From Candidatus Methylomirabilia bacterium (GTDB taxonomy: Bacteria > Methylomirabilota > Methylomirabilia > Rokubacteriales > CSP1-6), in NCBI GenBank assembly GCA_041492755.1, contig JBGPXN010000001.1:37261-101260 (forward strand): DNA of 64,000 nt, given 5' to 3'. The position numbers and the translations under genes are program-made. This document shows positions 44,546 to 64,000 of the stretch, piece after piece. The notes under the pieces are model-generated. The model had not been told where the DNA came from. It saw only the letters and a list, made by a program, of their open reading frames with translations, and searched no databases. How positions within the stretch are numbered: position 1 is the stretch's first letter; every line of letters begins with the position of its first letter.

Positions 44546-44559
44546 GCCTCTCCTGTTCC

Positions 44560-44587
44560 CCCAAAATGCGAACGGGCCCTCCGTCGG
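44560..44587 (-). promoter_or_regulatory. Intercistronic stem-loop between iscA and hscB (possible attenuator or processing site)
   Basis: mRNA GAACGGGCCC-GACGGA-GGGCCCGUUC followed by GCAUUUUGGGGG, then SD AGGAGAGG and the hscB AUG. Confidence 0.4.
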
Positions 44588-44617
44588 GCCCGTTCTCGCT
44601 CGCGCGCTGGAACCCGG

Positions 44618-44947: not shown

Positions 44948-44974
44948 GGACCCGGTCTCCTCCTTTGCGCTCGC

Positions 44975-45376
44975 TTACTTCGTGCCGGCCGCCACGCCGC
45001 TCCGGTCCTTGTAGTCGGCGAGGGCCGCCTTGATGGCATCCTCGGCCAGCACCGAGCAGTGGATCTTCACCGGCGGCAGCTTCAGCTCGTTCACGATGTC
45101 CGTGTTCTTGATCTTGGCCGCGTCGTCGACGGTCTTGCCCTTGAGCCACTCGGTGGCGAGGCTGGACGACGCGATGGCGCTCCCGCAGCCGAACGTCTTG
45201 AATTTGGCGTCCTCGATGACGCCGGTCTCGACGTTGACCTTGATCTGGAGCTTCATGACGTCGCCGCACTCCGGCGCGCCCACCAGCCCCGTGCCCACAC
45301 CGGGGGCGTCCTTCGGGAACGACCCCACGTTGCGCGGGTTGTTGTAGTGATCGACGACCTTATCGCTGTACGCCAT
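44975..45376 (-). CDS. iscU: Fe-S cluster assembly scaffold IscU
   Basis: GAPECGDVMKLQIKV ... FGCGSAIASSS ... LPPVKIHCSVLAEDAIKAA. Confidence 0.9.
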   Translation of the reverse strand: MAYSDKVVDHYNNPRNVGSFPKDAPGVGTGLVGAPECGDVMKLQIKVNVETGVIEDAKFKTFGCGSAIASSSLATEWLKGKTVDDAAKIKNTDIVNELKLPPVKIHCSVLAEDAIKAALADYKDRSGVAAGTK

Positions 45377-45387
45377 CGAAGCCCCCC

Positions 45388-46614
45388 TTACTCACCCTTC
45401 CACTGGATGGACTTGATATCCACGCCTTCTTTGGCCAGCTCGTAGAGCGGCGACATGTCGCGCAGCCGCTCGATCACCTCGACGGTGCGCTTGCCGACGA
45501 ACTCGACCTCTTCCTCCGTGTTGAAGCGGTGCAGGCTGAACCGGATCGACGAGTGCGCCAGCTCCGTGCTCGCCCCCAGCGCCGCGATCACGTACGAGGG
45601 CTCGAGCGTGGACGACGTGCAGGCCGAGCCGGAGCTCAGCGCCGCCTCCTTGTTGAGCCCCATCAGGACCGACTCGCCCTCCACGTAGGCGAACGAGATG
45701 TTCAGGTTCTGCGGCAGCCGGCGCTCCGGATGTCCATTGAGGAACGCCTCCTCGACCTGCGACAGAATCAAACCTTGAAGACGATCGCGCAGCTTGCTGA
45801 GCCGCGCCGCCTCTTCGACCATCGTCTCCTGGCAGATCTCAGCCGCCCGACCAAAGCCCACCACCAGCGGCACCGGCAGCGTGCCCGACCGCATCCCGCG
45901 CTCGTGGCCCCCGCCGTCGATCATCGGCGCCAGCCGCACCCGCGGCCCCTTGCGTCGCACGTAGAGCGCGCCGACGCCCTTGGGCCCATACATGAGATGC
46001 GCGGTACAGGTCAGGAGATCGATGCCCATGGCCTCCACGTCGATCGGGATCTTGCCCGCGGCCTGGGTGGCGTCGGCGTGGAAAATGACGCCCTTCTCCT
46101 TCGCGAGCTTCCCGATGGCGGCGACGTCCTGGATCGTCCCGATCTCGTTGTTGGCGAACATGATGGAAACCAGGATGGTCTTCGGCGTCAGCGCCTTGGC
46201 GATCTCGTCGACGTCCACCAGCCCGTCGGGGCGAACCGGAACGTAGGTCACCTCGACGCCCTGGCGCTCGAGTCGCTTGCAGGTATCCAGCGTCGCGCGC
46301 TGCTCGATCGCGGTGGTGACGATGTGGTTGCCCTTCTCGCGGTACATCTCGGCCACGCCCTTGAGCGCCAGATTGATCGACTCCGTCCCGCCCGAGGTGA
46401 AGATGACCTCTTTGGGATCGCGAGCACCGATCAGCTTGGCGATCTTCGCGCGCGCGGCATCCACCGCGCCCTCCGCCTCCCACCCGAACGGGTGGTTGCG
46501 GCTGGCCGGGTGGCCAAACTTCTCGGTGAAGTAGGGCAGCATCGCCTCCAGCACCCGCGGGTCGACCGGCGTCGTCGACTGGGCGTCCATGAAGATCGGA
46601 AACTTCACGGCCAT
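45388..46614 (-). CDS. iscS: Cysteine desulfurase IscS
   Basis: IFMDAQSTTPVDPRVLEAM ... TSGGTESINL ... SSGSACTSSTLEPSYV. Confidence 0.9.
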   Translation of the reverse strand: MAVKFPIFMDAQSTTPVDPRVLEAMLPYFTEKFGHPASRNHPFGWEAEGAVDAARAKIAKLIGARDPKEVIFTSGGTESINLALKGVAEMYREKGNHIVTTAIEQRATLDTCKRLERQGVEVTYVPVRPDGLVDVDEIAKALTPKTILVSIMFANNEIGTIQDVAAIGKLAKEKGVIFHADATQAAGKIPIDVEAMGIDLLTCTAHLMYGPKGVGALYVRRKGPRVRLAPMIDGGGHERGMRSGTLPVPLVVGFGRAAEICQETMVEEAARLSKLRDRLQGLILSQVEEAFLNGHPERRLPQNLNISFAYVEGESVLMGLNKEAALSSGSACTSSTLEPSYVIAALGASTELAHSSIRFSLHRFNTEEEVEFVGKRTVEVIERLRDMSPLYELAKEGVDIKSIQWKGE

Positions 46615-46627
46615 CGGGTCCGTCTCC

Positions 46628-47062
46628 TTACCGTCGAATCGCCATCAGGTCGGGCACGTCGTCGCCGACCAGCTCGGCCAAGCTCATGCTGTCCAGCATC
46701 TGCGTGATCGCCACTTGTAGTTTCTGCACGGGGCGCCGCAGGTTGCACCGCGCCATCTGCGGACACTCGCTCTCACTCTCCATGCACTCGACGATGTTGA
46801 TCGGCCCCTCGAGTGCCCGCACCACCTGCCCCACCGTGATGTCTGCCGGATGCCGGGCGAGCGTGTATCCCCCTTTCGGCCCGTTCTGACTCACGATGAG
46901 TCGCTGCTTGGCCAACCGCTGGAGGATCTTGGCGAGGAGCTCCGAAGGAATCCCGAAGGTCTCGGCGATCCGCTTCACGCTGACAGACCCGTCCTCTTCG
47001 TGGACGGCGATGAAATGAATCGCCATCAGCCCGTAATCCGCCCGTTTCGTGAACCTCAGCAC
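46628..47062 (-). CDS. iscR: Rrf2-family transcriptional regulator IscR
   Basis: GTG-initiated MLRFTKRADYGLMAIHFIA..., cluster-ligand region CMESESECPQMARC. Confidence 0.85.
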   Translation of the reverse strand: MLRFTKRADYGLMAIHFIAVHEEDGSVSVKRIAETFGIPSELLAKILQRLAKQRLIVSQNGPKGGYTLARHPADITVGQVVRALEGPINIVECMESESECPQMARCNLRRPVQKLQVAITQMLDSMSLAELVGDDVPDLMAIRR

Positions 47063-47118
47063 CCCGTCCCGTCCTCCGCCCGATCCATCACCGATCAGTA
47101 TATCCGACCGTCTTGATC

Positions 47119-47133
47119 GGCGACTAATTCAGT
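47119..47133. promoter_or_regulatory. Predicted IscR type-1 operator upstream of iscR
   Basis: cGACTAATTCAGTCg matches the IscR type-1 core GACT-RWWWY-AGTC, 57-71 bp upstream of the iscR start. It overlaps a putative -35 for a minus-strand TATACT -10 (47098-47103). Confidence 0.5.
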
Positions 47134-48406: not shown

Positions 48407-49753
48407 CTACTCCTTGATCTGGCCCTTGAGCTTGCGGAGATGCTGGCGGGCAACGTCCACCCAGTCCTTCTCGGACGGCAGTCCCGAGGCTAGCGCGATG
48501 TACTTTTCCCACTGCGCGATGGCCTCCCGCGGATCCACCTTTTCGTACACGACGGCCAGGTTGTACATGGCGCCGGTGTGCTTCCCGTCGAGATCGATGA
48601 CTTTGCGATACTCCTCGATTGCCTCTTTGTAGAGGCCCTTGTCCTCGTAGACATCGCCCAGGCCCATCCGGGCCTCGACCGAACGAGGGTCGAAGTCGAT
48701 CGCCTTCCGGTAGGCGTTGACCGACTCGTAGTAGAGGCCCTTCTCGGCGTAGTAGATCTTCCCGAGACTCAGGTACACGCGCGAATTCACCGGGTCGAAG
48801 GTGAGCGCCTTCTGGTAGCCCGTGATGGCACCGTCCACGTCGCCCTTCGCGGCTCGGGCGTCTCCAAGCCCTACGTGCGCGTCGGCGTAGAACGGCCGCA
48901 GATCGATCGCCTTGGCGTAGGCCTCCACCGCCTGGTCGAAGAGGCGGCGGGGCGCGGACAGGAACAGGTCACCGAGCGCCTTGTAGGGCTCCGGGTATGC
49001 GGGGTCGAGCTGCGTGGAGGCACGGAACTGGGCGGCGGCCTTCCAGCGATTGCCAAGACTGAGGTGCACCGTGCCGAGCATGTACTGGGCGACAGCGAAG
49101 CTCGGATCCGTCTCGATCGCCCGGGACAACAGATCGGCCGCAGACTCGTTGCTTTCCTGCCCGCCGCGCCGGAGGGTCGCCTGGCTCCGCGCGTAGAGCT
49201 CGAGCGCCTTCAACGAGCGCGTCGGCCGGGCGGCCTTGTCCATGCGGTTCGCTTCCGCATCCGTCGGTGTCACCTTGAGCGTGCGCGCGTACGCGAGCGG
49301 CAGTGCCGCCATGCGGTTCAACAGCTCGCCATCGGGAACCGACACGGGCTCGAGGTTGACGACGTCCGTTCCATTGGCTTTCACATCGAGCAGCCGCGGC
49401 CGGAGCACCAGCTCCCCACCTGCGCGGACGACCTGGCCGAAGGCCGCGTTGTCGACCTTCAAGGCGCGCGCGGCCTGGGTCACCGGGGCCTCGCCCCATG
49501 CCGAATGCTCGCCGAGCGCCCGCGAACGGGCGGGGTCGAGCTCGATGAAGGCGGGATGCTGGGCCAACCCGAGACGGACGATCTGCGCCACGCCCTCGCC
49601 GATCCACTGCTCGTCGGGCGGCAGCGTGGACGCGTCGAACGGCAGCACCAACACGATCCGGGGCTTGACCGCGGCCGCGGCTGACCCCGCCGCAATCAGG
49701 ACGAACACGGCGGCCAACAGTCGCGCGACGTTCCGCCCCGTCTTACCGTTCAT
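48407..49753 (-). CDS. TPR-repeat protein with signal peptide (BatC/BatE-like partner of the vWA protein)
   Basis: MNGKTGRNVARLLAAVFVLIAAGSAAAA signal, then multiple TPR motifs (AYAKAIDLRPFYADAHVGLGD...). Confidence 0.7.
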   Translation of the reverse strand: MNGKTGRNVARLLAAVFVLIAAGSAAAAVKPRIVLVLPFDASTLPPDEQWIGEGVAQIVRLGLAQHPAFIELDPARSRALGEHSAWGEAPVTQAARALKVDNAAFGQVVRAGGELVLRPRLLDVKANGTDVVNLEPVSVPDGELLNRMAALPLAYARTLKVTPTDAEANRMDKAARPTRSLKALELYARSQATLRRGGQESNESAADLLSRAIETDPSFAVAQYMLGTVHLSLGNRWKAAAQFRASTQLDPAYPEPYKALGDLFLSAPRRLFDQAVEAYAKAIDLRPFYADAHVGLGDARAAKGDVDGAITGYQKALTFDPVNSRVYLSLGKIYYAEKGLYYESVNAYRKAIDFDPRSVEARMGLGDVYEDKGLYKEAIEEYRKVIDLDGKHTGAMYNLAVVYEKVDPREAIAQWEKYIALASGLPSEKDWVDVARQHLRKLKGQIKE

Positions 49754-52700
49754 CGAGCGGTCCTCCCTGCCCTTCGCCCCGTTTGCGGCTCGCAACGCGC
49801 CACCGCCACAGCCGACCACCCAAGCGGCGGAACGCCGCGGGAGCAACCCGTCGCAGCGCGATCTCCGGGATCATGAGCAACGCCACCAACCCCACCATCC
49901 AGGGCCAAACCTCGACAGCAATCCGCGATTGCCTTCGTGCTTCCTGGAACGCCTGCCGCGGTTCCTTGAGGGCGCCACCGCCGGTCAGCTCGGCCAGCTC
50001 GCGCAGCGCCGTCTCGTCGACGCCGAGGTTGCGCAACTCCTGTGCATACGGTACCACCAGCCCGGCAAGCTGCGAACCAATGACACGCTCCTGCTTCCGC
50101 TGTGCCATCCCGACCAGGTACACGCCTTCCTGGGGCGCCGGGAACCGGCCGCGATACCGGCCGGGAGCGACCTGCTCGAGATCGAGCACGGTGCGCTCGC
50201 GGTTGGGCGCGACCACACCGACCTGCGTGTCCAGGAAGTTGATGAACTCGCCCTTGGCGTCCACGGCGTCGACCACGATCTCGCCGAAGTTGTCGCGGCG
50301 CTCGACGGTGGCGACCGTCTCCGATCGCGAGCCGCTGCGCAGCGTCCATCGCGTGACCTGCGCCCAAAACTTGTTGAAGTCGCGCCAACGGAGCCACAGG
50401 ACGCCCCACTTCGCCTTGGCGTCGGAGGTGAACGCCACCGAACGCCCGAGACCGTACCGCCAGGCGGCGAGGATCGGATCCTCCTGGTGGCTCATGAGGA
50501 CCATCTCGGCGTTCTGCTTCAGCGTCGTCGCCACGTAGCCGCCCAGCGGCGGCACCGCTTTCCAGTCGATGTCCTGGATCGACTCGTGCGACGGTCCGGT
50601 CAGCTGCGGCTTGAACGGCTGCTCGACCAGCGAGGCTTTGGAGGCGAGTTGCGTTTCCAGCGTGAAGATGCGCGGGATCGTCTGCGAGTCCTCGGTGTAG
50701 TAGAAGCGCCCGCGGCCCCACTTGGCGATGTCCACCATGAGCTGGACGTCGGAGTCCTTGCCGATGGCGACGGACGACACGGTGATCTTGTCCTTCACCA
50801 TGCGCCGCAGCAGCCCCTGGAAATCGCCCCGCGTCATCTGGCCGTCGGACAGGAAGATCACGTGCTTGAGCAGCGCGGGGCGCTCGAAGAGCACGGCGTA
50901 CGCGTCCTTCAGCGCCGGGTACCCATCGGTGCCGCCGCCCGCCTTGATGGTCGCGATCGCGTGGTGGATCGCCGACTTGTCCCGGGCCGGCCGCACCGGC
51001 ACGTCCCAGATGAACTCCGTGTCCCAGCTCTGCACGCCGACTTCGTTGCGGTCGTCGAGGAGGTCGACCACGAGGTGGCTGGCCTCCTTGGCGAGGTCCA
51101 GCTTGGTGACCTTCTCGTCCGTCGACATCGCCATCGAACCGGAACGGTCGATCGAGAGCACGACGGCGAGGCTCGGGATCTCGACCTTCTGCCGGACCTC
51201 CATCGTGACCGGCAGCGCTTCTTCGACCGGCGTGCGGTAGTAGCCGCCGACGCCGAAGCTTTCTTCGCCGCCGATCATGATGAGGCCACCGCCATGATCG
51301 CGGACGTAGTCACGGATGTTCGTCATTTGCGGGCGCGAGATCTTCAACGACGACACGTTGGACAGCACGATGCCGTCGTACTTCTCCAGCCCGGCCATGT
51401 CCTTGGGAATGCCGGCCGCCTCGACGACGGTGACCTCGATGTTCTGGGCGCGCAGCGCGGCCACCAGCGATTGCGCGTGGCTCTTGTCCTTCTCCGCCAG
51501 CAGCACCTGAGGTCGGCCGCGCACCACCACCGTCCCGACCGCGCGGTTGTTCTCTTCGATGGTGTCGCCGTCGACCTCGATGGCGGCCTGGTAAACGTGG
51601 ATGCCGCTGGCGTCCAGCGACTGGCGGTAGCTGAACACGTTCTTGCCGGCGTTGAGCCGGATGACCTGCGAGCCGAGGAACTCGCCGTTGCGGAACAGCG
51701 AGAGGCGGCCGTTGGTGTCCTTCAGGCTCCACGCCACCACCTTGGCCTGGAACGGCTCCCCGTACTTCACCTCGCGTGGCAGCACCATGGACTCCGCCAC
51801 GACTTCCTGGGTGAAGGTCAGCGGGGCGGCGACGTAGTAGATGTCGGCCCCCCCGTCCTTGGCCGCCTGCGCGCCCGTCACGCTGTTGCCGCGCGTTTCC
51901 TGGCCGTCGGTGAGCATGACGATGCGATTGGCGTGTCCCGGAGGCAGCGTGGCGAGCGCGAGCTGCAGCGCCTGGAAGATGTTGGTGCCGCGCGCGTTCA
52001 CTTCGGCCTTCGGGCGATCGACCGTCGGCCGGTTGGCCAACGGCTGATCGACGACGGGTTCCTCGCCGAAGACGATCACGCTCTGGCGGTCGTTGGCTCG
52101 CATGTGCTTGACGGCTTCGGACACGAAGCGCCACGAGCGCTCACGGGCGGCCAGACTCACGCTGTCCGAGTGGTCGAGCAGGAAGACGACGTTGAGCCGG
52201 TCGACCCATCGCGGCACCGTCGGCCGGAGCAGCGTCAGCGCGAGCAAGATCACCAAGGCGCCGCGGGTGGCGAGCGCCCACCGATCGGCCTGGCCGCCGG
52301 GCAACGCCCAGCGTCCCGCGCTCTGTCGCCGCCAGTAGAGGACGCCCTCCAGCAGCAGGAGCAGCACGGCGATCAGCACGAACAGCTGCCAGAGCTCGCG
52401 CTGCACCGGGACGGGCATCGCGGTGGCCGCCGCGGCGCCGGTGGCCACCGGCAACGGGCGAGGCACGACGTTGGACTCGTCCGCGTCCATCAGGTTGACG
52501 GCGACCTTCATCTGGCCGCGCGAGGTCGTCAGCGTGTAGACACCGACCTCGTCGGTCTCGGTGAAGCTCGCCATGCCTCGCGTGATCTGCCCCTTCACCG
52601 TGCGGCCGCCGGGGGTGGTCACCGTGACCGAGTTCACCCCGTGCTCCACCGGGAGCAGGATCGGCTGCCCCGTCGCGAGCTGGAAGCTGGCCTGGTCCAG

Positions 52701-54152
52701 ACCGGCCGGGTGCAGCCAGCGCAGCCCGTTCGAGAGGATCAACGGGAACGCCACCCGCAATGGCAGGTCGCTCTTGAACAGGTCGAAGCCCACGAACAGC
52801 GCCTTGCGATCCGGCTCCTCCAGCGCGTAGATGATCGGCCCGCCGACCGCCTCCACCAGCGGCCGCCCGGCGGCGAGCGGACGGATCCGTAGCGCGTCTT
52901 CGATGGCGACCTTGGCGAACTCGACGTGACGCATAACGGGATGACTGCGGTCCCAATCCATGATGGTCGGGCGCTCGATGCGGCCCAGCGTCTCCAGCGG
53001 CACGTCGGGCGGCACGGCGTTGACGAAGATGAAGCGACCGGCGCCGACCTTGGCCGGCGTGACGGAGTCGAGCACGACCACGTCGGCCTCGCCCATGCCG
53101 CCCTGGTACTGATCGGGCGTGCGGACCTCGACGGTTACTTGTGGGTCGGTTCTCAGAACCTTTTCCAGGAACAGGTTGCCGGGGCTGACCAGCAACACCG
53201 AGATCTTGCGTGGGGGCGGCAGGACGGCGTAGGCCACATTGTCGGTGGCGAGGTCGTCGCGCACTTGCAGCCGCGCCGTCACCACGCCGCCGCCGGTGTG
53301 GCTGAAGGGCAGGACCACCGAGCGCCGCACGTTCGGCTCGAGGGTCACCGACTTCTCGGCGAAGGGACGGTCGTCGACGTCGAGCGTGAACGTGAACGTC
53401 TGCGCGTCCGGCGTGTAGTTCACCAGTGACACGAAGGCCTGGTACTCGAGCGCGCCGTAGTAGTTCTTGCGGATGGCCAGGTTGGTGATGCCGACGTTGC
53501 GACCGCCCTGGCCGATGCCGATCCAGCGCACGCGTGGATCCTTCGTTTCCTCGGAGTCGGCCAGCGCGTAGGCCCCATCGGTGAAGACGTGGATCTCGGC
53601 GCGCCGGTCGTTGCCCACGAGCGCGCGCGCCGTGCGGATGGCCTCCGGGAGCCGATGCGGCAGGTCGTGGGCCTGCGCACTGCGGATGGCGGCCACCGCG
53701 CGGTCGCGATCGCGCGAGAGCGCCGCCACCACCTTCGGCTGCACGCCCGATTCGATCACCATGATCTCGGCGCCTTCACCGAGCCGGCCGACCAGCCCGA
53801 GCGCCTCGCTCCGGGCTACCGCGAAGCGCGTGGCTCCGACGTCGCGGGTCTTCATGGATGCGGACGTGTCGAGGACGATCACGACCTTGCGCGCGCCCTG
53901 GCCCATGATCGTCACCGCCGGCCGCGCGAGCGCCAGCGCCAGCGCGAGCAGGGCGAGGATCTGGAGGATCATCAGCGGGTCGCGCTGCAAGCGCTGGAAG
54001 AACGCGGAGGCCTCGCGGTCGCGGAGCGACGTCTCCCACAGCAGCAGGCTGGACACCGTGCGCTCGCGCCGGCGAACCTTGAGGAAGTAGAGGAGGACGA
54101 GCGGCAGCGACAGCCCGAAGAGGGCCAGCGCAAGTGGGGACAGGAAACTCAT
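49743..54152 (-). CDS. Giant BatA/BatB-like fusion: aerotolerance-regulator N-terminal TM domain plus three vWA domains plus GATase1/ThuA-like domain
   Basis: N-terminal TM plus VVIVLDTSASM (vWA 1), VVFLLDHSDSV (vWA 2), LAVVLSIDRSGSM (vWA 3), and a DGIVLSNV...GGGLIMIGGEESF class-I-amidotransferase-like segment; 1469 aa. Its antisense 1218-aa track ORF is an artefact. Confidence 0.7.
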   Translation of the reverse strand: MSFLSPLALALFGLSLPLVLLYFLKVRRRERTVSSLLLWETSLRDREASAFFQRLQRDPLMILQILALLALALALARPAVTIMGQGARKVVIVLDTSASMKTRDVGATRFAVARSEALGLVGRLGEGAEIMVIESGVQPKVVAALSRDRDRAVAAIRSAQAHDLPHRLPEAIRTARALVGNDRRAEIHVFTDGAYALADSEETKDPRVRWIGIGQGGRNVGITNLAIRKNYYGALEYQAFVSLVNYTPDAQTFTFTLDVDDRPFAEKSVTLEPNVRRSVVLPFSHTGGGVVTARLQVRDDLATDNVAYAVLPPPRKISVLLVSPGNLFLEKVLRTDPQVTVEVRTPDQYQGGMGEADVVVLDSVTPAKVGAGRFIFVNAVPPDVPLETLGRIERPTIMDWDRSHPVMRHVEFAKVAIEDALRIRPLAAGRPLVEAVGGPIIYALEEPDRKALFVGFDLFKSDLPLRVAFPLILSNGLRWLHPAGLDQASFQLATGQPILLPVEHGVNSVTVTTPGGRTVKGQITRGMASFTETDEVGVYTLTTSRGQMKVAVNLMDADESNVVPRPLPVATGAAAATAMPVPVQRELWQLFVLIAVLLLLLEGVLYWRRQSAGRWALPGGQADRWALATRGALVILLALTLLRPTVPRWVDRLNVVFLLDHSDSVSLAARERSWRFVSEAVKHMRANDRQSVIVFGEEPVVDQPLANRPTVDRPKAEVNARGTNIFQALQLALATLPPGHANRIVMLTDGQETRGNSVTGAQAAKDGGADIYYVAAPLTFTQEVVAESMVLPREVKYGEPFQAKVVAWSLKDTNGRLSLFRNGEFLGSQVIRLNAGKNVFSYRQSLDASGIHVYQAAIEVDGDTIEENNRAVGTVVVRGRPQVLLAEKDKSHAQSLVAALRAQNIEVTVVEAAGIPKDMAGLEKYDGIVLSNVSSLKISRPQMTNIRDYVRDHGGGLIMIGGEESFGVGGYYRTPVEEALPVTMEVRQKVEIPSLAVVLSIDRSGSMAMSTDEKVTKLDLAKEASHLVVDLLDDRNEVGVQSWDTEFIWDVPVRPARDKSAIHHAIATIKAGGGTDGYPALKDAYAVLFERPALLKHVIFLSDGQMTRGDFQGLLRRMVKDKITVSSVAIGKDSDVQLMVDIAKWGRGRFYYTEDSQTIPRIFTLETQLASKASLVEQPFKPQLTGPSHESIQDIDWKAVPPLGGYVATTLKQNAEMVLMSHQEDPILAAWRYGLGRSVAFTSDAKAKWGVLWLRWRDFNKFWAQVTRWTLRSGSRSETVATVERRDNFGEIVVDAVDAKGEFINFLDTQVGVVAPNRERTVLDLEQVAPGRYRGRFPAPQEGVYLVGMAQRKQERVIGSQLAGLVVPYAQELRNLGVDETALRELAELTGGGALKEPRQAFQEARRQSRIAVEVWPWMVGLVALLMIPEIALRRVAPAAFRRLGGRLWRWRVASRKRGEGQGGPLDER

Positions 54153-55060
54153 CCCAGCACCAACCCCCTGAGCTGTCCGAGGACGAATTCCTCGACGGAC
54201 ACGTCGGTGGTCACCCGCCGGTAGCCGATCTCCTGGCTTCGGCAGAAGCCCTCGACCTTCTCGAGGAACTGGGCGAGCCGCTGGCGGTAGGCACGCATCA
54301 CGTCACCATCGATGGTGATCTCGCGGACCTCGCCCGTTTCGGAATCGTGCAGTCGGAGGTCGCCCCCGAGCGTCGGATTGACTTCCTCCGGATCCAACAC
54401 GTGGATGACGTGCACCTCGAATCGTCGCTCGAGCATCGCCCGCACGCCCTGCTCGAATCCCACGGGATCCATGAAGTCGGAGATGATCACCGCGAGTCCG
54501 GACTCCCGCGCCCGCATCGCGTACGCGCCGAGGGCGCCATTGAGGCTCGTCGGGCCGCCGGGGCGCACCCGCCCGAAGAAATCCACCAGCGCGGAGAACT
54601 GATTGCGGCCGCGTACCGGCGGCCACCCCTCGCTGAGGCGCTCGCGCAGCACGGCGACGCCCACCCGCTCGAGGTTGACCAGGCCTACGAAGCCGAGCGC
54701 GAGCGCGACGCGGGAGGCGAACTGCAGCTTGCTCGGCGTGCCGAAGCCCATCGACAGCGAGGCGTCGACCAGCAGGTGCAGTCGGAGGTCTTCCTCGTCG
54801 ACGAACAGCTTGACGTGCAGGCGGTCGTGCCGCCCGTACACGTTCCAGTCGACGTAGCGGAGATCGTCGCCGCTGCCGTAGGCGCGGTAGTCGCAGAACT
54901 CGACGCTGTGACCCTTGCGCGGACTGCGCCGCTCGCCCTTGACCCGGCCCCGGAACGCCCGGCGGGAGGCGAGGGCGAGGCGCTCGAGCTGCGCCAGGAA
55001 CTCGGAGGTGAACGGCGTCTGCGCGGTGGCCGCGGTCTTACCGGTCGTCGCCGTGCTCAC
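54149..55060 (-). CDS. DUF58 domain protein (vWA-like, MoxR partner)
   Basis: ...YVDWNVYGRHDRLHVKLFVDEEDLRLHLLVDASLSMGFG... Confidence 0.75.
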   Translation of the reverse strand: MSTATTGKTAATAQTPFTSEFLAQLERLALASRRAFRGRVKGERRSPRKGHSVEFCDYRAYGSGDDLRYVDWNVYGRHDRLHVKLFVDEEDLRLHLLVDASLSMGFGTPSKLQFASRVALALGFVGLVNLERVGVAVLRERLSEGWPPVRGRNQFSALVDFFGRVRPGGPTSLNGALGAYAMRARESGLAVIISDFMDPVGFEQGVRAMLERRFEVHVIHVLDPEEVNPTLGGDLRLHDSETGEVREITIDGDVMRAYRQRLAQFLEKVEGFCRSQEIGYRRVTTDVSVEEFVLGQLRGLVLG

Positions 55061-55063
55061 GAT

Positions 55064-56512
55064 CTACCGCTCGTCCAGCGCCTGGAAATAGTCCTTGATC
55101 TGCCCGTGGAACTCCCGCGGCACCTGCTCGCGGGCGATGGCGTCCTCCATCATCTTTCGGTACTGGCCGATGACGCCGAGGTACGACAGCCGCGAGCCCA
55201 TGGGGCCGCCCTTGCCGGTGAGGTTCGTGTCGAAGCCGTCCTTGCGGCCGCGCCGACTCTCACCCTCGACGCCGACGTCGTACGGACTGGCGCGCAACCG
55301 CTGCGTCGCGTCGCCCTTGGGCGAGCCGCTCTTGCCCTTGCCAGGAAGCAGCCCTTCGCCCTCCCCGAAGTCCTGGTCCTCGGGCCCGCCGCCCCCCGGC
55401 TGGTTTCGATCGCGTCCGGCCGACTGGCTGCTGTCGCGGCCGCCGCGCAGATTTTTGCCGCCGCGCTGTCGCTCCTCCATCGCGCGCAGCTTGTCGAGAG
55501 CCTTGGACATCGCCTCCATGGCCTTGTCGGTCTGGCCACCCTCGAGCGCTTCCATGCCTTCGGAGACTTCCGAGCCCCAGTTGCCGCCCTTGCGTCCCAG
55601 CCGCTCCATCTCCTCGAGCAGCTCCTTCAGTTTCTGCGGCGAAATCTGGTCGGGACGCAGGCCGCCACTGAGCGCCTTCGACTTGCGGAAGACCATCTTG
55701 TACTGGCTCTGGGTGAAGTCGGACTGTAGATCCGGCAGCCGGTCGGCCTGCTCCAGCATCTTCAGTCGCTCGTCACCCTTGTTCAGGAAGCTGTTGAAGT
55801 CCGGGCGCTGCGAGCCGAGCGCGGTGTCCTTGAAGATGGCCGAGAGGTCGCCGGTGGTCGATGCTCCGGCCGCCCCGGTCTTCTGCGCGAAGTCACGCTC
55901 CTCGAACGCCGAGCGCTTGAGCGCGTCTTTCGGCGTGCGCGGACGGTCCTGCTCGACCATGCCCGCCCCGGTGCGGTCCGCCGGCTCTTCGCTCTCGGCC
56001 CCGTCGGAGAGGTTCGGCAGGCGCGGCGTCGGCAACGGCAGCGGTGGCGCCAGCGCCAGTATCACCGCGGCCAGCGCGGGCACCGGCAGCCACATCGCCT
56101 CGCGCGGCAGGATGCGTCGCGCCACTTGCTTCGGCGCCAGCGAGCCCACGCGCGCGGTCACGTCGGCCACGAGCGCCTCCACCAGCGGCGTGCGGTCAGG
56201 ACGCGGCGCCCATTCCAGCGCGGTCGCGAGCCGGTCTTGCAGCCCGAACGCGGCGTCGGCGAGGCGGGCGGCGTCCCCGCGCGGCACGCGACGCACGAAT
56301 CCCCAGAGCCCGCCGGCCAGCAAGCCGGCCGCGGCCACGCCGAGGGCCAGGGGCAACGCGAGCGCGCCGAGCGGTGTCTTGAAGACGAGGAGCGCGGCGC
56401 CGAGGGCCACGCCGTAGAAGAGTCCGCGGAGCGCGTAGTGCTCGGCGCGCCGCAGGCGGACCTGTGACACGATGGTCTGCACGAGACGGTCGAGCGGTTC
56501 AGGCTGCGACAT
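55064..56512 (-). CDS. Hypothetical membrane protein with long charged/coiled C-terminal region (MoxR-operon component)
   Basis: Two predicted N-terminal TM helices, a Pro-rich segment, and a K/E/R-rich region. No recognisable catalytic motif. Confidence 0.45.
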   Translation of the reverse strand: MSQPEPLDRLVQTIVSQVRLRRAEHYALRGLFYGVALGAALLVFKTPLGALALPLALGVAAAGLLAGGLWGFVRRVPRGDAARLADAAFGLQDRLATALEWAPRPDRTPLVEALVADVTARVGSLAPKQVARRILPREAMWLPVPALAAVILALAPPLPLPTPRLPNLSDGAESEEPADRTGAGMVEQDRPRTPKDALKRSAFEERDFAQKTGAAGASTTGDLSAIFKDTALGSQRPDFNSFLNKGDERLKMLEQADRLPDLQSDFTQSQYKMVFRKSKALSGGLRPDQISPQKLKELLEEMERLGRKGGNWGSEVSEGMEALEGGQTDKAMEAMSKALDKLRAMEERQRGGKNLRGGRDSSQSAGRDRNQPGGGGPEDQDFGEGEGLLPGKGKSGSPKGDATQRLRASPYDVGVEGESRRGRKDGFDTNLTGKGGPMGSRLSYLGVIGQYRKMMEDAIAREQVPREFHGQIKDYFQALDER

Positions 56513-56538
56513 CCGGGCCTCCTCGGTGGCGACGGCGC

Positions 56539-57570
56539 CTACCGGAGAAAGGGTTCGCGCGTCTGGGCCTGGGTACTCTGGGCGGCGTCGACGATGTCCC
56601 CGATCAGCGTGTCGACGTCGATGCCCTCGGCTTCACCCTCGAAGTTGAGGATGATTCGATGGCGCAGCGCGGGCAGGGTCAGCGCCTTGAGATCGTCCAC
56701 GCTGACGTTGCACCGCCCCTGGGACAGCGCGAGCACCTTGGCGCCGAGCACGAGGGCCTGGGCACCGCGCGGACTGGCGCCGTAGCGGATGAAGCGCCGG
56801 CTGACGTCGGGTGCGCCCTCCCACGCGGGGTGGGTCGCCATCACGATCGTCGAGGCGAGATCGCGGACGTGGGAGGCGATCGGGACTTCACGGACCAGCT
56901 CGCGGAAGCCGAGCACGGTCGCTCCGCTCATCACCCGCGAGACGTCGACGTGGCGGGACTGGGTGGTGCGATCGATGATCGCGTTCAGCTCCTCCAGCGC
57001 GGGATACCGCACGCGCAGCTTGAAGAGGAAGCGATCGAGCTGCGCTTCCGGCAGCGGATACGTCCCTTCCATCTCGATCGGGTTCTGGGTGGCGAGCACG
57101 AAGAACGGCGCCGGCAGCGGACGCGAGGCGCCGCCCACGGTCACCCCGCCCTCCTGCATGCCTTCCAGTAGCGCGGACTGGGTCTTCGGGGTCGCCCGGT
57201 TGATCTCGTCCGCGAGCAGGATGTGGGCGAAGATCGGCCCGGCCTGGAACTGGAAGTGCTTCCGGCCGTCGGCGTCCTCCACGATGATGTTGGTGCCGGT
57301 GATGTCGGCCGGCATGAGGTCCGGGGTGAACTGGATACGAGAGAACGCCAGGTCCAGGCACTCGGACAGCGTCTTGATGAGCAGCGTCTTGCCGAGCCCG
57401 GGGACGCCTTCCAGCAGCGCGTGCCCGCCGGCGAACATCCCGATGAGCACGTGATCGATGATCTCGCGGTGGCCGACGATGACCTTCTCGACCTCCGCGC
57501 GCAGGCCCTCGAACGCGGTGACGAACTCCTGGACCCGGGACTCTTGCGTCATGCGGTCTCCCTCTCTCAC
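56539..57570 (-). CDS. MoxR-family AAA+ ATPase
   Basis: LLEGVPGLGKT (Walker A), ILLADEINRA (Walker B), typical MoxR length. Confidence 0.85.
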   Translation of the reverse strand: MREGDRMTQESRVQEFVTAFEGLRAEVEKVIVGHREIIDHVLIGMFAGGHALLEGVPGLGKTLLIKTLSECLDLAFSRIQFTPDLMPADITGTNIIVEDADGRKHFQFQAGPIFAHILLADEINRATPKTQSALLEGMQEGGVTVGGASRPLPAPFFVLATQNPIEMEGTYPLPEAQLDRFLFKLRVRYPALEELNAIIDRTTQSRHVDVSRVMSGATVLGFRELVREVPIASHVRDLASTIVMATHPAWEGAPDVSRRFIRYGASPRGAQALVLGAKVLALSQGRCNVSVDDLKALTLPALRHRIILNFEGEAEGIDVDTLIGDIVDAAQSTQAQTREPFLR

Positions 57571-57821
57571 GAGTCGACGCCCCTCGATTCTAATAGCAAG
57601 ACTACTGCCATGCCCCGTCGAGCATCAGCCGAATTAAATCGCTGGCCTATCCCTTCACCGCCGGCGTGCCGGGTGCCCACCGGGTGGGCTGGCTGATCGA
57701 TTTTGTGGCGCTACCGGCGGATCGACCACCCGCGACGTCCCCTCGGCCGGTCGCCGCCATGGTCGGAGTAACGGCGACGGCCCGACGCCGGCTCCCCGGT
57801 CGGCGCGCCGTCGGCGATCCA

Positions 57822-59258: not shown

Positions 59259-60317
59259 TCAGCCGGCGACGCGAATCACCGGATCCGAGACGACTTCGCC
59301 GATCTCCCACGCCGTCTCGCCGCGCGCGCTGAAGGCCGCGAGAACGCCACCCGCCCGATCGGGCGCGACGGAAAAGAGCAGGCCGCCGGACGTCTCCGCT
59401 TCGAAGAGCAGCGCCACCATCGCCGGGGCGATGCCGGGATCGATCGACAGGCGGGAGCCGAACACGGCTTCGACGTGCCGGCGGTTACGCTTCATTCCGC
59501 CGCTGAGATGACCCGCCTCCGCCAGCGCCAGCGCCCCTGGTAAAAATGGCAGCCGCCCGGCGCCGAGGGCAAGCCCCGCGCCCGACGCTTCGACCATTTC
59601 CCCGCCGTGACCCAGCAAGCCGAATCCGGTGACGTCGGTGGCGCCGCGGGCGCCGAAGTCGCGCGCGACCTCGGCCGCGACGCGATTCAGCCGGAGCATG
59701 CTCGCCACGGCGCCCGCCAGCGTCTCGGCGCTGGCCGCGCCATCCTTGGCCGCGGTCGTGATGGTCCCGGTACCGAGCGGCTTGGAAAGAAACACGCGAT
59801 CGCCCGGGCGCAACCCGCCCTTGATCAGCACGCGGTCGGGGTGCACGCGGCCGGTGACGCAGAGGCCGTACTTCGGCTCGGCATCGATGACGGTGTGGCC
59901 GCCGGCGATGACCCCACCCGCCTCCGCCACCTTCTCCGCGCCACCGCGGAAGACTTCGGCCACGACCGCCTTGGGCAGCTCGCGAGGAAAGCCGGCGATC
60001 GCGAGCGCGAACATCACTTCGCCCCCCATCGCGTACACGTCGGACATCGCGTTGGCTGCCGCCACCGCGCCCCAGGTGTACGGATCGTCCACGACGGGCG
60101 GGAAGAAATCGACGGTTTCTACCAGCGCGAGGTCCGGCGAGATGCGGTAGACGGCGGCATCGTCGGCAACCCCGAGCCCGACGAGCAGGTCCGGAGGGGC
60201 CGCCATCGCCGACGGCTTCAGCACCGCGAGCACCTCCTGGAGATCTCCAGGAGCCATCTTGGATGCTCAGCCGGCGCAGGAGGCGTACGAGGTGAGGCGG
60301 ATGTCCTTGCCTGTCAT
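59259..60317 (-). CDS. selD: Selenide, water dikinase (selenophosphate synthetase) with in-frame UGA (selenocysteine) at 60267-60269
   Basis: Reading through TGA gives MTGKDIRLTSYASCAG-U-ASKMAPGDLQEVLAV..., aligning with SelD IRLTQYSHGAG-C/U-GCKISPKVLETIL. The track splits it into 60267..60488 and 59259..60257. Confidence 0.8.
60234..60266 (-). promoter_or_regulatory. Putative bacterial SECIS hairpin downstream of the selD UGA
   Basis: mRNA UGA-gcauccaagaugg-CUCCUGGAGAUCUCCAGGAG: perfect 20-nt palindrome starting 13 nt after UGA. Confidence 0.55.
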
Positions 60318-60334
60318 GCCGGCGCCCTCGGAGC

Positions 60335-61240
60335 TCACGATGGAAGCTCGCGCACCTGGGATTCCACGAATGCCACGAACGCCTGCGCCAGCGGCGAGCG
60401 CGTGCGCTCGCGATGGAGCACGAGATAGAACGAGCGCGCGACGCGCAGGTCGGCCAGCCGCACGCAGACCAGGACGTTGGCCCGGCACTCGTCCGCCACC
60501 GCGCGCCGGGAGATGATCGTGATGCCCGCCCCCGCCCGCACGGTCTGCTTCACGGCCTGCGTGGACCCGATCTCGCCCGCGATCCGGAACGCGCCGAGGT
60601 CCGTCCCCGCCTCGCGGAGCGCCTGCTCGAGCGCCTCGCGGGAGCCGGAGCCGCGCTCGCGCACGATCATCGGCTCCGCCTTCACGTCGGCCAGCATCAC
60701 GGTCTGCCGCGTCGCCCAGGGATGGCTGGCCGGAACGACGATGACGAGCTCGTCGTTCATGAGCTCACGCGCCTCGAGCACGCGCGACGTCGGTTGCGCT
60801 CCAACCACGGCGGTCTCGACCTTTCCGCTCTCGACCCACTCGCACACCGTCCGGCTACCCCCGATGAGCAGGCTGATGGCGACGTCGGGGTACTTGCTCT
60901 TGAACTGTCCGATGAGGCCCGGCAATAGATACTCGCCGGGAATGGTGCTGCCCCCGATGACGAGCTCGCCGCTCATGCGGCCCTGGAACTGGTCCATGGC
61001 CTGCCGAGCTTCGCGCGAGAGACCCAGGATCCGCACGGCGTAGCGCAGCAGGAGCTGCCCCGCCGGCGTCGGCGCGGCGCCGCGCCCCAATCGGTCGAGC
61101 AACGACAACCCGAGCTCCTCTTCAAGGGCGCGGACATGCTCGGAGATCGTGGGCTGGGTAAGCGACAGCGCCTCGGCGGCGCGCGAAAAGCTACCGAGCT
61201 CGGCGACCTTGGCGAAGACTTCGAGGCGGCGTAGGTCCAT
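60335..61240 (-). CDS. LysR-family transcriptional regulator
   Basis: MDLRRLEVFAKVAELGSFSRAAEALSLTQPTISEHVRALEEELG (HTH), then LysR substrate-binding domain. Confidence 0.85.
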   Translation of the reverse strand: MDLRRLEVFAKVAELGSFSRAAEALSLTQPTISEHVRALEEELGLSLLDRLGRGAAPTPAGQLLLRYAVRILGLSREARQAMDQFQGRMSGELVIGGSTIPGEYLLPGLIGQFKSKYPDVAISLLIGGSRTVCEWVESGKVETAVVGAQPTSRVLEARELMNDELVIVVPASHPWATRQTVMLADVKAEPMIVRERGSGSREALEQALREAGTDLGAFRIAGEIGSTQAVKQTVRAGAGITIISRRAVADECRANVLVCVRLADLRVARSFYLVLHRERTRSPLAQAFVAFVESQVRELPS

Positions 61241-61299
61241 CGGTCAGAACGGGAGTCCCGAAGGCGGCGGCCGGCGCGGCGCCGGCGCCGTCGCTCAGG

Positions 61300-61512
61300 T
61301 CAGTGACAGGAACAGCCGCCGCCGCAACAACCGCCCCCGGCCGACGGCATCGTCGCGACGTCAGCCCCGTGACTCTTCATCGCGAAAAGGGAAAGACGCC
61401 GCTTGACCTCGGCGCTGGAGCATCCCGGACACGTGACGGCCGCGGCCGTCGAGGGGAGGTAGCGCTCGAATTCCTTGCCGCAGCCGCCGCACCTGTACTC
61501 GTAGACGGGCAT
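61300..61512 (-). CDS. FmdB-family zinc-ribbon protein with Gly/Cys-rich C-terminal tail
   Basis: MPVYEYRCGGCGKEFE...CPGCSS...; tail GGGCCGGGCSCH. Start is 3 nt after the pup-like stop. Confidence 0.7.
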   Translation of the reverse strand: MPVYEYRCGGCGKEFERYLPSTAAAVTCPGCSSAEVKRRLSLFAMKSHGADVATMPSAGGGCCGGGCSCH

Positions 61513-61515
61513 CGA

Positions 61516-61716
61516 CTACTCGCCCCCTCGCTGCACGTAACTCTTCACGAACTCCTCGGCGTTCTCCTCGAGGATGTCGTCGATCTCGTCAAGGAGCTTG
61601 TCGATGTCCTCCTTGATCTTCTTGCCCTTCTTGGCCAGCTCGGGGTTCGCATTCGCCCCGTCGCCATCCTCGTTGGGCTTCGTTGGCCGCGTCTCTTTCT
61701 TTTTCTGCTCTGCCAT
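61516..61716 (-). CDS. pup: Prokaryotic ubiquitin-like protein (Pup/UBact family), C-terminal GGE
   Basis: MAEQKKKETRPTKPNEDGDGANANPELAKKGKKIKEDIDKLLDEIDDILEENAEEFVKSYVQRGGE. Compare Mycobacterium Pup ...DDLLDEIDDVLEENAEDFVRAYVQKGGQ. Hidden in the track at the C-terminus of the 370-aa ORF 61516..62628. Confidence 0.75.
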   Translation of the reverse strand: MAEQKKKETRPTKPNEDGDGANANPELAKKGKKIKEDIDKLLDEIDDILEENAEEFVKSYVQRGGE

Positions 61717-61814
61717 GCTGGCCTCCATCGGGGCCCGGACCGTCGACGGCGCACGTGAGCAACGCCCCACACGTATCTTACCACCGGGCAATACCTCGGC
61801 CGCGGGCCTTTCTC

Positions 61815-62984
61815 CTACCGCCGGGACCGCCGGAACTGCTTGCTCAACGTCAGCGTCTGATTCTGGTAGGACGACGGCACCCCGACCCCGTAGAGCCGCG
61901 CCGGCGGGCTGGCCAGCCGCTCGAACCCGACCTTGAACGACGTCTGTCCGTCGTAGATCATGAACGGCACTTCCCGCGCGCGTACTTCCATCACGACCTT
62001 CGTGCCCAGCACGCTGCCGTCGCCGTAGCCGAAGCCGGGATCGAAGAAGCCCGCGTAGTGCGTGCGGATCTCCCCAGCGCCCGGATCGTAGACGACCATC
62101 TCGGCAGCATAGTCCGGGGGGACCCGAATCCGTTCCTTCGACGCGAGGATGTAGAACCGATTCGCCTCCAGGATGTAGGAGTCCCGGTTCGGCCGCTTGA
62201 TGGGCTCCCAGAACTCGGCCGGATCGTAGTGGTCGATCCGGCTCAGGTCGACCACCGGCGGATTCGGGTGGGCGCGGTACCCGATGATGCCGTCGGTCGC
62301 CCGTCCCGACAGATCGATCCCCATGCACAGTCCGTCGTTGATCACGCGCGGGCCGGGCGGGAGCGGCCGGTCGTCGTCGTCGTAGAGCAGCGGGATTCGC
62401 CGATACAGCTGGGTCAGCGCGGCGTCGGCCAGCGAGGTGGCGCCGGACAGCAGGCGGACCTGATTGAGCGAAAGCCCTTCGTGAACCCGCACGGGAAACG
62501 ACTGCGGCGCGACCTCGAGATACAGCGGACCGGCGTAGCCAGGGGCGATCTCGTCGAAGCGTGCCGTCGCGTCCGCCACCACCCGCGTGAAGATGTCCAG
62601 TCGACCCGTCGTGCTCTTCGGGTTGCACCGGCCCCGAACGTTCGCGGGCAGGCGCAGCGACTCCTGAAGCGGCACGAGGTAGACCGATCCGCGTTGCAGC
62701 GTCGCCCCCGTGGACAGCGCCAGCCGATCGATGACGAGATCGATCTCCGCGAAGTCGGTCTGCTGCAGCCGCGTGAGCACCGGCTCCCGGTACGGCAGGA
62801 AGCTCGCGCGGAGCTGATAGGCGACGGCGCCGACGCGAAGGTCCAGGCTCGATGGCTGGTATTGCGCGTCGGCAACGGGCGTGGCTGCGGTGATCCAGCC
62901 GTCGCGCACGGCCGCCCGTAGCGCATGGTCCGGCAGGACGCCGGGCGTGACCGCGCCGTCAGCGCGGACTCGGTGCGGTCGCAT
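61815..62984 (-). CDS. dCTP deaminase/dUTPase-fold protein, apparently tandem-domain; function uncertain
   Basis: 389 aa; N-terminal ...LPDHALRAAVRDGWITAATPV...SSLDLRVG resembles the dCTP deaminase N-terminus; length suggests a duplicated domain. Confidence 0.4.
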   Translation of the reverse strand: MRPHRVRADGAVTPGVLPDHALRAAVRDGWITAATPVADAQYQPSSLDLRVGAVAYQLRASFLPYREPVLTRLQQTDFAEIDLVIDRLALSTGATLQRGSVYLVPLQESLRLPANVRGRCNPKSTTGRLDIFTRVVADATARFDEIAPGYAGPLYLEVAPQSFPVRVHEGLSLNQVRLLSGATSLADAALTQLYRRIPLLYDDDDRPLPPGPRVINDGLCMGIDLSGRATDGIIGYRAHPNPPVVDLSRIDHYDPAEFWEPIKRPNRDSYILEANRFYILASKERIRVPPDYAAEMVVYDPGAGEIRTHYAGFFDPGFGYGDGSVLGTKVVMEVRAREVPFMIYDGQTSFKVGFERLASPPARLYGVGVPSSYQNQTLTLSKQFRRSRR

Positions 62985-63041
62985 GATAGTCGTAGAGCTG
63001 TCGCACCCACGCGAGATCCATCCGCGCCCCTTCCCCTGGCC

Positions 63042-63944
63042 TTACCCGTCGGTCTGGCAGACGGCGCCGGCCGCATCGACGTCGAGAACCCGCGCCCGGC
63101 CTTCGATGCCGGCCTTGCCGAGCGCCGTTTCCATCGCGCGCGCGACGGCGTCCCCGTCACCCGTGACGACGGCGAGCATCGACGGCCCCGCGCCGCTGAG
63201 GACACAACCCAACGCCCCGGCGTCGCGGGCGGCCGCGGCGACCGCGGGCAGCCACGGGAAGAGCCGGCGACGATAGGGCTGATGCAGTCGGTCCTCCAGG
63301 GCGACGGCGAGCGCGTCGGGCCGCCGCGTTTGCAGCGCGGCCAGGAGGAGCGCGACACGCTGCACGTTGAACACGGCGTCCGCCCGCGACACCGACTTCG
63401 GCAGCACCGCTCGCGCTTCCGCCGTCGTACTGGTCACCTCGGGCACGAGCACGATCCACCGCAGCTCGGGCGGGACCGGCAGCGTCAGCGCGCGCGTGCC
63501 GCTCCCATCCGAGGACGACACGGTCAAGCCGCCGTACACCGCGGCCGCGACGTTGTCGGGATGGCCCTCCGCCCGCGCCGCCAGCACCAACAGCGCCTCG
63601 CGGTCGAGCGGCGCGCCGAGCAGCGCGTTCCCCGCGACCAGCCCGGCCACCCACGCCGCCGCGCTCGACCCGAGTCCGCGCGCCAGCGGAATCCGATTCA
63701 CGCACGTCAGCGCGCACCCGGGAAACGGACGTCCCACGGCCTCGTACGCGAGACGAACCCCGCGCGCCACGACGTTGCGCGGCCCGGTCCCGAGCCGGTC
63801 CGCGCCCTCCCCCTCCGCGGTGATCGTGACGCTGTCCGCCTCCTCCGCCGTCACGTCGTTGTGCAGGGCCAGCGCGAGCCCCAGCGCATCGAACCCCGGC
63901 CCGAGGTTCGCGGAACTAGCCGGCACGCGTACGCGCACGCGCAT
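63042..63944 (-). CDS. thrB: Homoserine kinase
   Basis: VRVPASSANLGPGFDALGLAL ... PLARGLGSSAA (GHMP kinase motif). Confidence 0.85.
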   Translation of the reverse strand: MRVRVRVPASSANLGPGFDALGLALALHNDVTAEEADSVTITAEGEGADRLGTGPRNVVARGVRLAYEAVGRPFPGCALTCVNRIPLARGLGSSAAAWVAGLVAGNALLGAPLDREALLVLAARAEGHPDNVAAAVYGGLTVSSSDGSGTRALTLPVPPELRWIVLVPEVTSTTAEARAVLPKSVSRADAVFNVQRVALLLAALQTRRPDALAVALEDRLHQPYRRRLFPWLPAVAAAARDAGALGCVLSGAGPSMLAVVTGDGDAVARAMETALGKAGIEGRARVLDVDAAGAVCQTDG

Positions 63945-64000
63945 CGCGACGTCTAACGGATTGCGGAAAGCCGCCGCAGCATCGAAAAAGCCCCGGCGCC

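Follow-up and report, generated by a model that had tools for sequence, protein, structure and literature searches.

Results

A 66-residue Pup is encoded immediately upstream of an fmdB-family gene

We studied a stretch of 64,000 nucleotides (the window) from a Candidatus Methylomirabilia bacterium (Rokubacteriales; CSP1-6; assembly GCA_041492755.1, contig JBGPXN010000001.1, positions 37,261 to 101,260 of the forward strand), in which a first-pass annotation made from the sequence alone had proposed a minus-strand gene for a Pup-like protein of 66 residues ending in GGE. This gene, pup, occupies 61516–61716 of the window on the minus strand (coding 61519–61716; ATG at 61716–61714; stop codon TAG at 61518–61516), and its translation is MAEQKKKETRPTKPNEDGDGANANPELAKKGKKIKEDIDKLLDEIDDILEENAEEFVKSYVQRGGE. 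The C-terminus reads ...EENAEEFVKSYVQRGGE, with YVQRGGE as the last residues before TAG, placing GG-Glu at the very end of the protein. Direct reading of the sequence revealed a Shine-Dalgarno sequence, GGAGG (61722–61726, minus strand), separated from the ATG by a 5-nt spacer, and GGAG is kept at the equivalent site in the related loci L003, L006, and L007. A second in-frame ATG at 61728 would give a 70-aa Pup, the form annotated by JGI; since this codon is missing from the relatives L003 and L007, it is the start of the 66-aa form that is conserved. The gene is easily overlooked, as had been pointed out at the first pass: the list of open reading frames (ORFs) contains it only as the end of a 370-aa GTG-initiated ORF (61516–62628) that overlaps dcd in another frame.

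The profile search that the first-pass annotation had recommended returned scores well above the cut-offs with both the Pfam model (PF05639: 80.8 bits, cut-off 27; E = 1.4e-22; model positions 6–69 of 69) and the NCBIfam model (TIGR03687: 62.8 bits, cut-off 41.45), and no Pfam family other than Pup matched the protein at E ≤ 0.01. It also has the GG[EQ] end, the length of about 60–70 aa, and the conserved C-terminal segment of the family. Judged by its profile score and its GG[EQ] motif, the protein is a true Pup.

Downstream of pup lies a gene for a 70-aa zinc-ribbon protein of the FmdB family (61300–61512, minus strand; ATG at 61512), whose ATG is found 3 nt past the pup stop codon (TAG TCG ATG). 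The gap measures 3–5 nt in every Rokubacteria locus examined (the window, L001–L008, L177–L179, L181, and L183), and the arrangement, read from sequence, is a tight bicistron, in agreement with the coupling described at the first pass. The FmdB ORF scored 49.5 bits with PF09723 (Zn_ribbon_8; cut-off 34.4) and 52.4 bits with TIGR02605 (cut-off 31.3), and has the layout MPVYEYRCGGCGKEF...CPGC...GGGCCGGGCSCH; as in the rest of the family, the zinc ribbon begins at the initiator Met, with cysteines at C8-x2-C11 and C28-x2-C31 (CxxC...CxxC), and is followed by a Gly/Cys-rich tail, here GGGCCGGGCSCH. This tail had been called unusual, a description that does not hold: it is retained as GGGCCGGGC[SG]CH in the Rokubacteria relatives, and low-complexity tails, GGGCCGGGCC-like ones included, are typical of the family that TIGR02605 describes. 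The fmdB gene diverges much faster than pup, yet the four Cys ligands and the reading frame are retained.

pup is conserved in sequence and position among Rokubacteria

A homology search with the window Pup gave 1266 homologues at E ≤ 1e-5. The best 120 of the 1266 are 76–95% identical to it; many of them are titled "ubiquitin-like protein Pup" by JGI, and two carry the NCBI labels Candidatus Rokubacteria bacterium and Candidatus Rokuibacteriota bacterium. Such labels on near-identical proteins bear out the non-actinobacterial host that had been suggested. The identical 66-aa protein is annotated on two NCBI contigs of metagenome-assembled genomes (MAGs; GCA_041485185.1 and GCA_041496405.1), and JGI calls the 70-aa form, always with the Pfam Pup assignment, on seven soil contigs. 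Related MAGs are GCA_016184365.1, GCA_973789865.1, and GCA_050731755.1. Thus, the gene is already recognised as Pup by the NCBI and JGI annotation pipelines, and the novelty implied for it at the first pass falls away. Rokubacteria are assigned by GTDB to the phylum Methylomirabilota.

The Pups of five groups of relative loci are 85–88% identical to that of the window. Comparison of the C-terminal 37 codons among Rokubacteria loci revealed 7–10 synonymous vs. 0–2 non-synonymous differences, indicating that the C-terminal half of Pup is under strong constraint. Some of the Pups at this same locus (P0061, P0111, and P0120; L007 and L008 are among the loci) end in GGQ rather than GGE. A GGE end is common among known Pups, for example in Corynebacterium, and is present in the Methylomirabilales and Nitrospirae loci that we retrieved. 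With homologues, repeated gene calls, and constraint on its codons, a chance ORF is ruled out and pup is, on comparative sequence grounds, a genuine gene.

The genes flanking the pair on the same strand are thrB and dcd upstream and lysR and selD downstream. Every Rokubacteria locus retrieved keeps the block thrB-dcd-pup-fmdB-lysR, and the order thrB-(MFS)-dcd-pup-fmdB-lysR recurs in five independent relatives (L003–L005, L006, L007, L008, and the L177 series). The neighbour recognised earlier as a dCTP-deaminase-fold protein is dcd, a two-domain 2'-deoxycytidine 5'-triphosphate deaminase gene (61815–62984, minus strand; NF005734: 431.8 bits, cut-off 283) that holds the same place in L001–L008 and L177–L182. 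The regulator gene of the LysR family (60335–61240, minus strand) is of the selenium-metabolism-associated type (NF040786: 299.7 bits, cut-off 250) and comes after fmdB in all related loci; both it and dcd are context genes. The canonical place of pup is between dop and prcB, and here the gene is found between dcd and fmdB. Its identity as Pup stands nonetheless, because that position defines a type of locus and not a protein family.

An extended −10-like motif, TGGTAAGAT (61775–61783, minus strand), precedes the pup start by about 58 nt and is a candidate promoter for pup-fmdB. The pattern TGnTA(A/G)(A/G)(A/C)T occurs at a comparable place in the window, L003, L006, and L007, with TTGACC in addition 17 nt further upstream in L007; a consensus scan of the window found no full sigma-70 site. 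On this weak evidence, a candidate extended −10 only, pup-fmdB probably has a promoter of its own. Rfam gave no match within 60000–64000, and a terminator-like match was disregarded as it falls inside the fmdB coding sequence.

Enzyme genes of the Pup-proteasome system are absent from the window and cluster without pup on Rokubacteria-like soil contigs

The first-pass annotation had found no PafA/Dop-type ligase gene and no proteasome gene in the window, and tblastn searches agreed: the best match of Mycobacterium tuberculosis PafA in the window had E = 0.6, and PafA, Dop, Mpa, PrcA, and PrcB sets from the Methylomirabilales and soil-type clusters described below gave none at E ≤ 0.01. (The M. 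tuberculosis PafA query was validated, with 569 bits to PF03136 and 96% identity to P0121.) A Pfam scan of those window ORFs that could not be named by eye gave no pupylation or proteasome match, and in none of the related loci does an enzyme gene come closer than 10 kb to pup. Searches elsewhere for a Rokubacteria PafA went as follows. The word-index search with M. tuberculosis PafA returned Mycobacteriales only; a search at 50% identity gave 150 PafA representatives, and the taxa named in the three clusters examined were Actinobacteria, Candidatus Moduliflexus, Nitrospinota, and Entotheonellia alone; and the genomic contexts of P0246, P0361, P0386, P0431, and P0288 identified no Rokubacteria PafA. 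The best 120 matches listed for the PafA of L025, a Methylomirabilales locus, were all labelled Methylomirabilis or NC10, with at least 72% identity; the Rokubacteria-type PafA is about 60% identical to the L025 protein and so falls outside these 120. Among the homologues listed, none came closer than 72.5% to the soil-type PafA.

We scanned for PafA in one genome per GTDB species, with three non-actinobacterial PafA-like representatives as queries. Loci from Methylomirabilales carry the full system in one cluster (confirmed with Pfam in L025). The order is pup-fmdB-mpa-dop-prcB-prcA-pafA in L018, L024, and L025, where fmdB comes about 30 nt after pup and directly upstream of mpa, and fmdB-mpa-dop-pup-prcB-prcA-pafA in L022, where fmdB stays upstream of mpa without pup beside it. 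pup lies between dop and prcB in L022, L023, and L044. fmdB is present in each of the four Methylomirabilales loci whose sequence extends upstream of mpa (fmdB regions at L018:4184-4571, L024:4264-4694, L025:4179-4605, and L022:4218-4403). The Methylomirabilales Pups are 59–65% identical to the window Pup overall, and the Pups of Rokubacteria and Methylomirabilales share the same last 18 residues, EENAEEFVKSYVQRGG[EQ]; most of those from Methylomirabilales end in GGE, and those of L022 and L023 in GGQ. This similarity to Pups encoded in enzyme clusters places the window Pup in the family that serves the canonical Pup-proteasome system in the sister order. Among draft genomes, those of NC10 and other phyla have been described as containing Dop and PafA homologues "very sporadically" (PMC7947786).

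The best match listed in the genome scan was the PafA of L016 (PF03136: 481 bits), whose MAG bears the label uncultured Candidatus Rokubacteria bacterium; the matches listed next came from NC10/Methylomirabilota genomes and from many of Nitrospirota. Two of the scan patterns (D[TG]GDHPEY and [NGE][TY]YGCHEN) do not fit the sequence of the cluster-type Rokubacteria PafA (DTGFHPEY and NSYGCHEN) and the matches were listed only in part, so the single Rokubacteria match is no measure of prevalence; counts from the genome and metagenome scans are lower bounds among the matches listed. At least 80 soil metagenome contigs carry a PafA 85–95% identical to that of L016. Among the long contigs, Ga0081539_10000009 (509 kb) holds the PPS cluster and Ga0073930_1000004 (612 kb) holds pup. 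The dop-prcB junction is spanned by 39 of the 80 listed, and in all 39 the order is mpa-dop-prcB-prcA-pafA. In L121 all five genes pass the NCBIfam equivalog cut-offs for the proteasome ATPase (TIGR03689: 745 bits), Dop (TIGR03688: 631), the 20S beta subunit (TIGR03690: 314), the 20S alpha subunit (TIGR03691: 331), and PafA (TIGR03686: 634). No Pup ORF (by tblastn, and by a hidden Markov model search at E ≤ 0.1 with its filters off) and no FmdB-like ORF were found in the 80 listed PafA loci, of which eight have about 5 kb of sequence upstream of mpa. These soil clusters mirror the Rokubacteria pup locus exactly: they hold the enzymes without the tag, and it holds the tag without the enzymes.

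The G+C content of the soil Pup-proteasome system (PPS) loci is 0.66–0.71, vs. 0.69 for the window. We also compared tetranucleotide composition, using long loci and the non-overlapping part of the window (1–45000), as short loci gave no discrimination. The correlation with the window was 0.905–0.958 for the soil PPS loci, compared to 0.53–0.90 for Methylomirabilales, 0.75–0.82 for Nitrospira, and 0.86 for one Acidimicrobiia locus. The window and the PPS loci have no genes in common, and the pup contigs and the PafA contigs no sample.

A second group of soil PafA genes (L097–L104, L108–L111, L123–L127, L161, and L174) is 86–95% identical to that of L016, has a lower G+C content of 0.62–0.66, and is solitary in the loci long enough to judge; the L124 member scores above the equivalog cut-off (619 bits).

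Most clusters of the Nitrospira type (mpa-dop-prcB-prcA-pafA) have only about 60–100 nt between dop and prcB. Among L026–L095, a Pup ORF is present in only nine loci, seven of which are labelled Nitrospirae or Nitrospirota (L026, L032, L036, L046, L065, L071, and L086), whereas the labels of the other two are Thermodesulfobacteriota (L041) and 'uncultured bacterium' (L044). No detectable Pup ORF lies in the flanks retrieved, up to 10 kb, for L027–L031, L033–L035, L037–L040, and most others in this range. To go by these loci, it may be common outside Actinobacteria for the tag gene to be unlinked or very divergent.

Neighbouring genes in the window

The lysR and selD genes that follow fmdB span 59259–61240; in L006 and L008, selD is replaced by an unannotated gene for a 352-aa protein and a phosphonate-type ABC transporter. 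A conserved block (49743–57624 in the window) consists of a MoxR AAA ATPase gene, a 522-aa ORF without a Pfam match, a DUF58 gene, and a gene for a 1519-aa BatA/VWA protein; it is found a few kb past selD in all related loci, and zf-HC2 and glycosyltransferase genes lie between selD and the block. The ISC operon with hscBA that the first-pass annotation had described is indeed present at 41798–47128, with genes for an Rrf2 regulator, iscS, iscU, iscA, hscB, hscA, and fdx. Beside it, at 38215–40615 and 40477–41347, is a second pair of cysteine desulfurase (NifS-like) and scaffold (NifU-like) genes with cysE, of which the NifS-like gene scores just below the NifS cut-off; the opposite strand there carries a gene of the DsrE family and a second small ORF that matches nothing in Pfam.

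Discussion

Taken together, the observations point with high probability to an ordinary Pup-proteasome system with a functional Pup, whose tag gene has moved off the enzyme cluster and is expressed as a unit with fmdB. A mpa-dop-prcB-prcA-pafA cluster without pup most likely exists elsewhere in this genome, to judge from the evidence at the level of the lineage. The first-pass annotation had called the gene an orphan, which is correct for the window and is not supported for the genome, given the lineage-level evidence for a pup-less cluster and the GGQ variants, which in the known pathway need Dop.

In this arrangement, pup-fmdB sits between dcd and lysR and the enzyme genes would form a separate cluster devoid of pup. 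By analogy with the actinobacterial pathway, whose steps involving PafA, Mpa, and Dop are established (PMC3511204, PMC7947786), PafA would use ATP to phosphorylate the gamma-carboxylate of the C-terminal Glu of Pup and would join this Glu to target-protein lysines. The conserved C-terminal helix of Pup would then be bound by the Mpa/ARC ATPase, which would thread the tagged protein into the PrcAB 20S proteasome, and Dop would take Pup off and, in the relatives with GGQ, would deamidate it first. A Pup ending in Gln needs Dop in the known pathway (PMC7947786), and PafA accepts the GGE form as it is (PMC3511204, PMC7947786). Since the window Pup ends in Glu, no deamidation should be needed, supporting the earlier proposal that it would be ready for ligation without Dop.

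Several observations weigh against this reading. PafA, Dop, Mpa, and Prc were never met on a contig carrying the window pup, and we infer their presence in the genome itself. The soil PPS contigs are assigned to Rokubacteria by one labelled MAG, by sequence identity, and by composition. In that MAG (region L016:8236-12300, CAWBMV010000016.1), the PafA match ends at about residue 385, where the frame enters the middle of an aldehyde-dehydrogenase gene and continues as a fragment of it, and a helix-turn-helix transposase-like gene adjoins just upstream; the L016 PafA may be a pseudogene, the product of a rearrangement, or a long-read assembly artefact. In the solitary L016-like PafA loci that are long enough to judge (L097–L104 and L123–L127 among them), no mpa, dop, or proteasome genes lie nearby, so these genes may reflect proteasome-independent pupylation or a split system. 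Finally, the whole case, expression and conjugation included, is built from sequence.

Could FmdB be more than a neighbour? It is conceivable, though clearly the less probable outcome, that Pup and FmdB form a functional pair in which FmdB acts as a lineage-specific accessory of the Methylomirabilota system (a regulator, an adaptor, a chaperone, or a preferred target). This proposal would extend the explanation given above and replaces nothing in it; if the two are such a pair, fmdB would have moved out of the enzyme cluster along with pup for that reason. The constant short spacing of pup and fmdB in every Rokubacteria locus examined, the position of fmdB behind pup and upstream of mpa in L018, L024, and L025 and upstream of mpa alone in L022, and the survival of the four Cys ligands and the Gly/Cys-rich tail despite fast divergence are consistent with a pair. 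The pairing is, however, a matter of gene neighbourhood, and an FmdB gene is lacking around the PPS clusters in some 60 Nitrospirota loci as well as in the Acidimicrobiia locus and the soil PPS loci. To our knowledge, genes of the FmdB family are common and small and have no established function, and the adjacency could go back to one chance event in an ancestor of the phylum. A literature search combining Pup-system and zinc-ribbon terms found nothing tying FmdB to pupylation. Somewhat less probable again is the stronger version, that FmdB is a part of the Methylomirabilota Pup system that has so far gone unrecognised and that in Rokubacteria the tag and FmdB have separated into a two-gene module transcribed on its own; if so, the supply of the tag could be regulated apart from the ligase-proteasome machinery.

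A Pup that is truly orphan, with PafA and Dop lost or never present and the protein left as a relic or in a role independent of conjugation, appears improbable. It would agree with the lack of an enzyme gene in the 64-kb window and within 10 kb of pup in related loci, as well as with the incomplete state of the sole Rokubacteria-labelled PafA among the matches listed (L016). However, the strict purifying selection on the half that would bind PafA and Mpa, and on the GG[EQ] end, is hard to explain without partners, GGQ variants at the same locus imply Dop, and pup-less PPS clusters with matching composition and PafA proteins 85–95% identical to that of a Rokubacteria MAG are abundant.

The resemblance to UBact proposed at the first pass is hardly credible: a non-actinobacterial host and a Glu end would fit, but the protein passes the curated Pup thresholds, matches no other Pfam family at E ≤ 0.01, is 63–65% identical to the Pups of Methylomirabilales clusters, and has a C-terminal half close to Pups encoded in canonical Pup-proteasome clusters. 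UBact is a short protein proposed as a ubiquitin-like tag in several Gram-negative phyla and presumed to be ligated via its C-terminal Glu or Gln by PafA-like enzymes; said to have been described by Lehmann and colleagues in 2017, it reportedly lacks a GG[EQ] end and is encoded between two Dop/PafA-like genes, neither of which applies to the window pup.

Two loci retrieved along the way, L011 (L011:8052-20909; ERZ27247709 k141_1097351) and L012 (Ga0315282_10000337), contain a UBact-like cluster built quite differently from the window locus. The order is an Mpa-like ATPase, a Pup_ligase-family gene, a 77-aa ORF without a Pfam match, and a Pup_ligase-HEAT fusion, followed by Prok-RING-like, ThiF (E1-like), UQ_con (E2-like), YukD-like ubiquitin-fold, JAB peptidase, and CHAT protease genes. 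These appear, from their domains, to be a UBact-like system beside a ubiquitin-like conjugation system.

Our findings leave the understanding of how pupylation works unchanged. Their interest is that Rokubacteria, an abundant uncultured soil lineage, keep a strongly conserved Pup, and that a tag gene can be unlinked from its enzymes, with the consequence that surveys limited to the dop/prcB neighbourhood miss pup or label it an orphan. Accounts of pupylation usually tie it to Actinobacteria and Nitrospirae and to a rigid gene order (PMC3511204, PMC7947786), and the order has been termed 'rigidly conserved' in pupylating organisms (PMC3511204). Our literature search found no paper on Pup in Rokubacteria or on Rokubacteria pupylation, and the proteasome matches were unrelated; Rokubacteria are not discussed in the pupylation literature searched, and their gene order differs from the one called rigidly conserved. 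The phylum-wide association of FmdB with pup or mpa, seen in gene neighbourhoods, is possibly the sole new element here, and a zinc-ribbon gene that stays with one or the other throughout a phylum is a cheap, testable candidate for an accessory factor.

Comparison with known systems

Compared to UBact, considered by description only, the window protein is likewise short and from a non-actinobacterial lineage; it differs in being a Pup by profile and GG[EQ] end and in having dcd and fmdB as neighbours. With the FmdB family (TIGR02605/PF09723), the downstream gene shares an N-terminal CxxC-17-CxxC ribbon followed by a low-complexity Gly/Cys tail, and what sets it apart is its consistent linkage to pup or mpa across one phylum, of which our literature search gave no description. 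The actinobacterial Pups (M. tuberculosis Rv2111c, and C. glutamicum Pup with its native Glu end) belong to the same Pfam and NCBIfam family as the window Pup and match it in size, in the charged low-complexity N-terminal half, and in the C-terminal LLDEIDxxLEENAExFVxxYVQxGG[EQ]; the window host, in contrast, is a member of Methylomirabilota/Rokubacteria, and its pup is not between dop and prcB and is coupled to a gene for an FmdB zinc ribbon. The Methylomirabilales/NC10 clusters have a near Pup sequence, identical last 18 residues, and an associated FmdB-family gene, although their pup or pup-fmdB is inside the enzyme cluster, whereas the pair of the window lineage lies between dcd and lysR.

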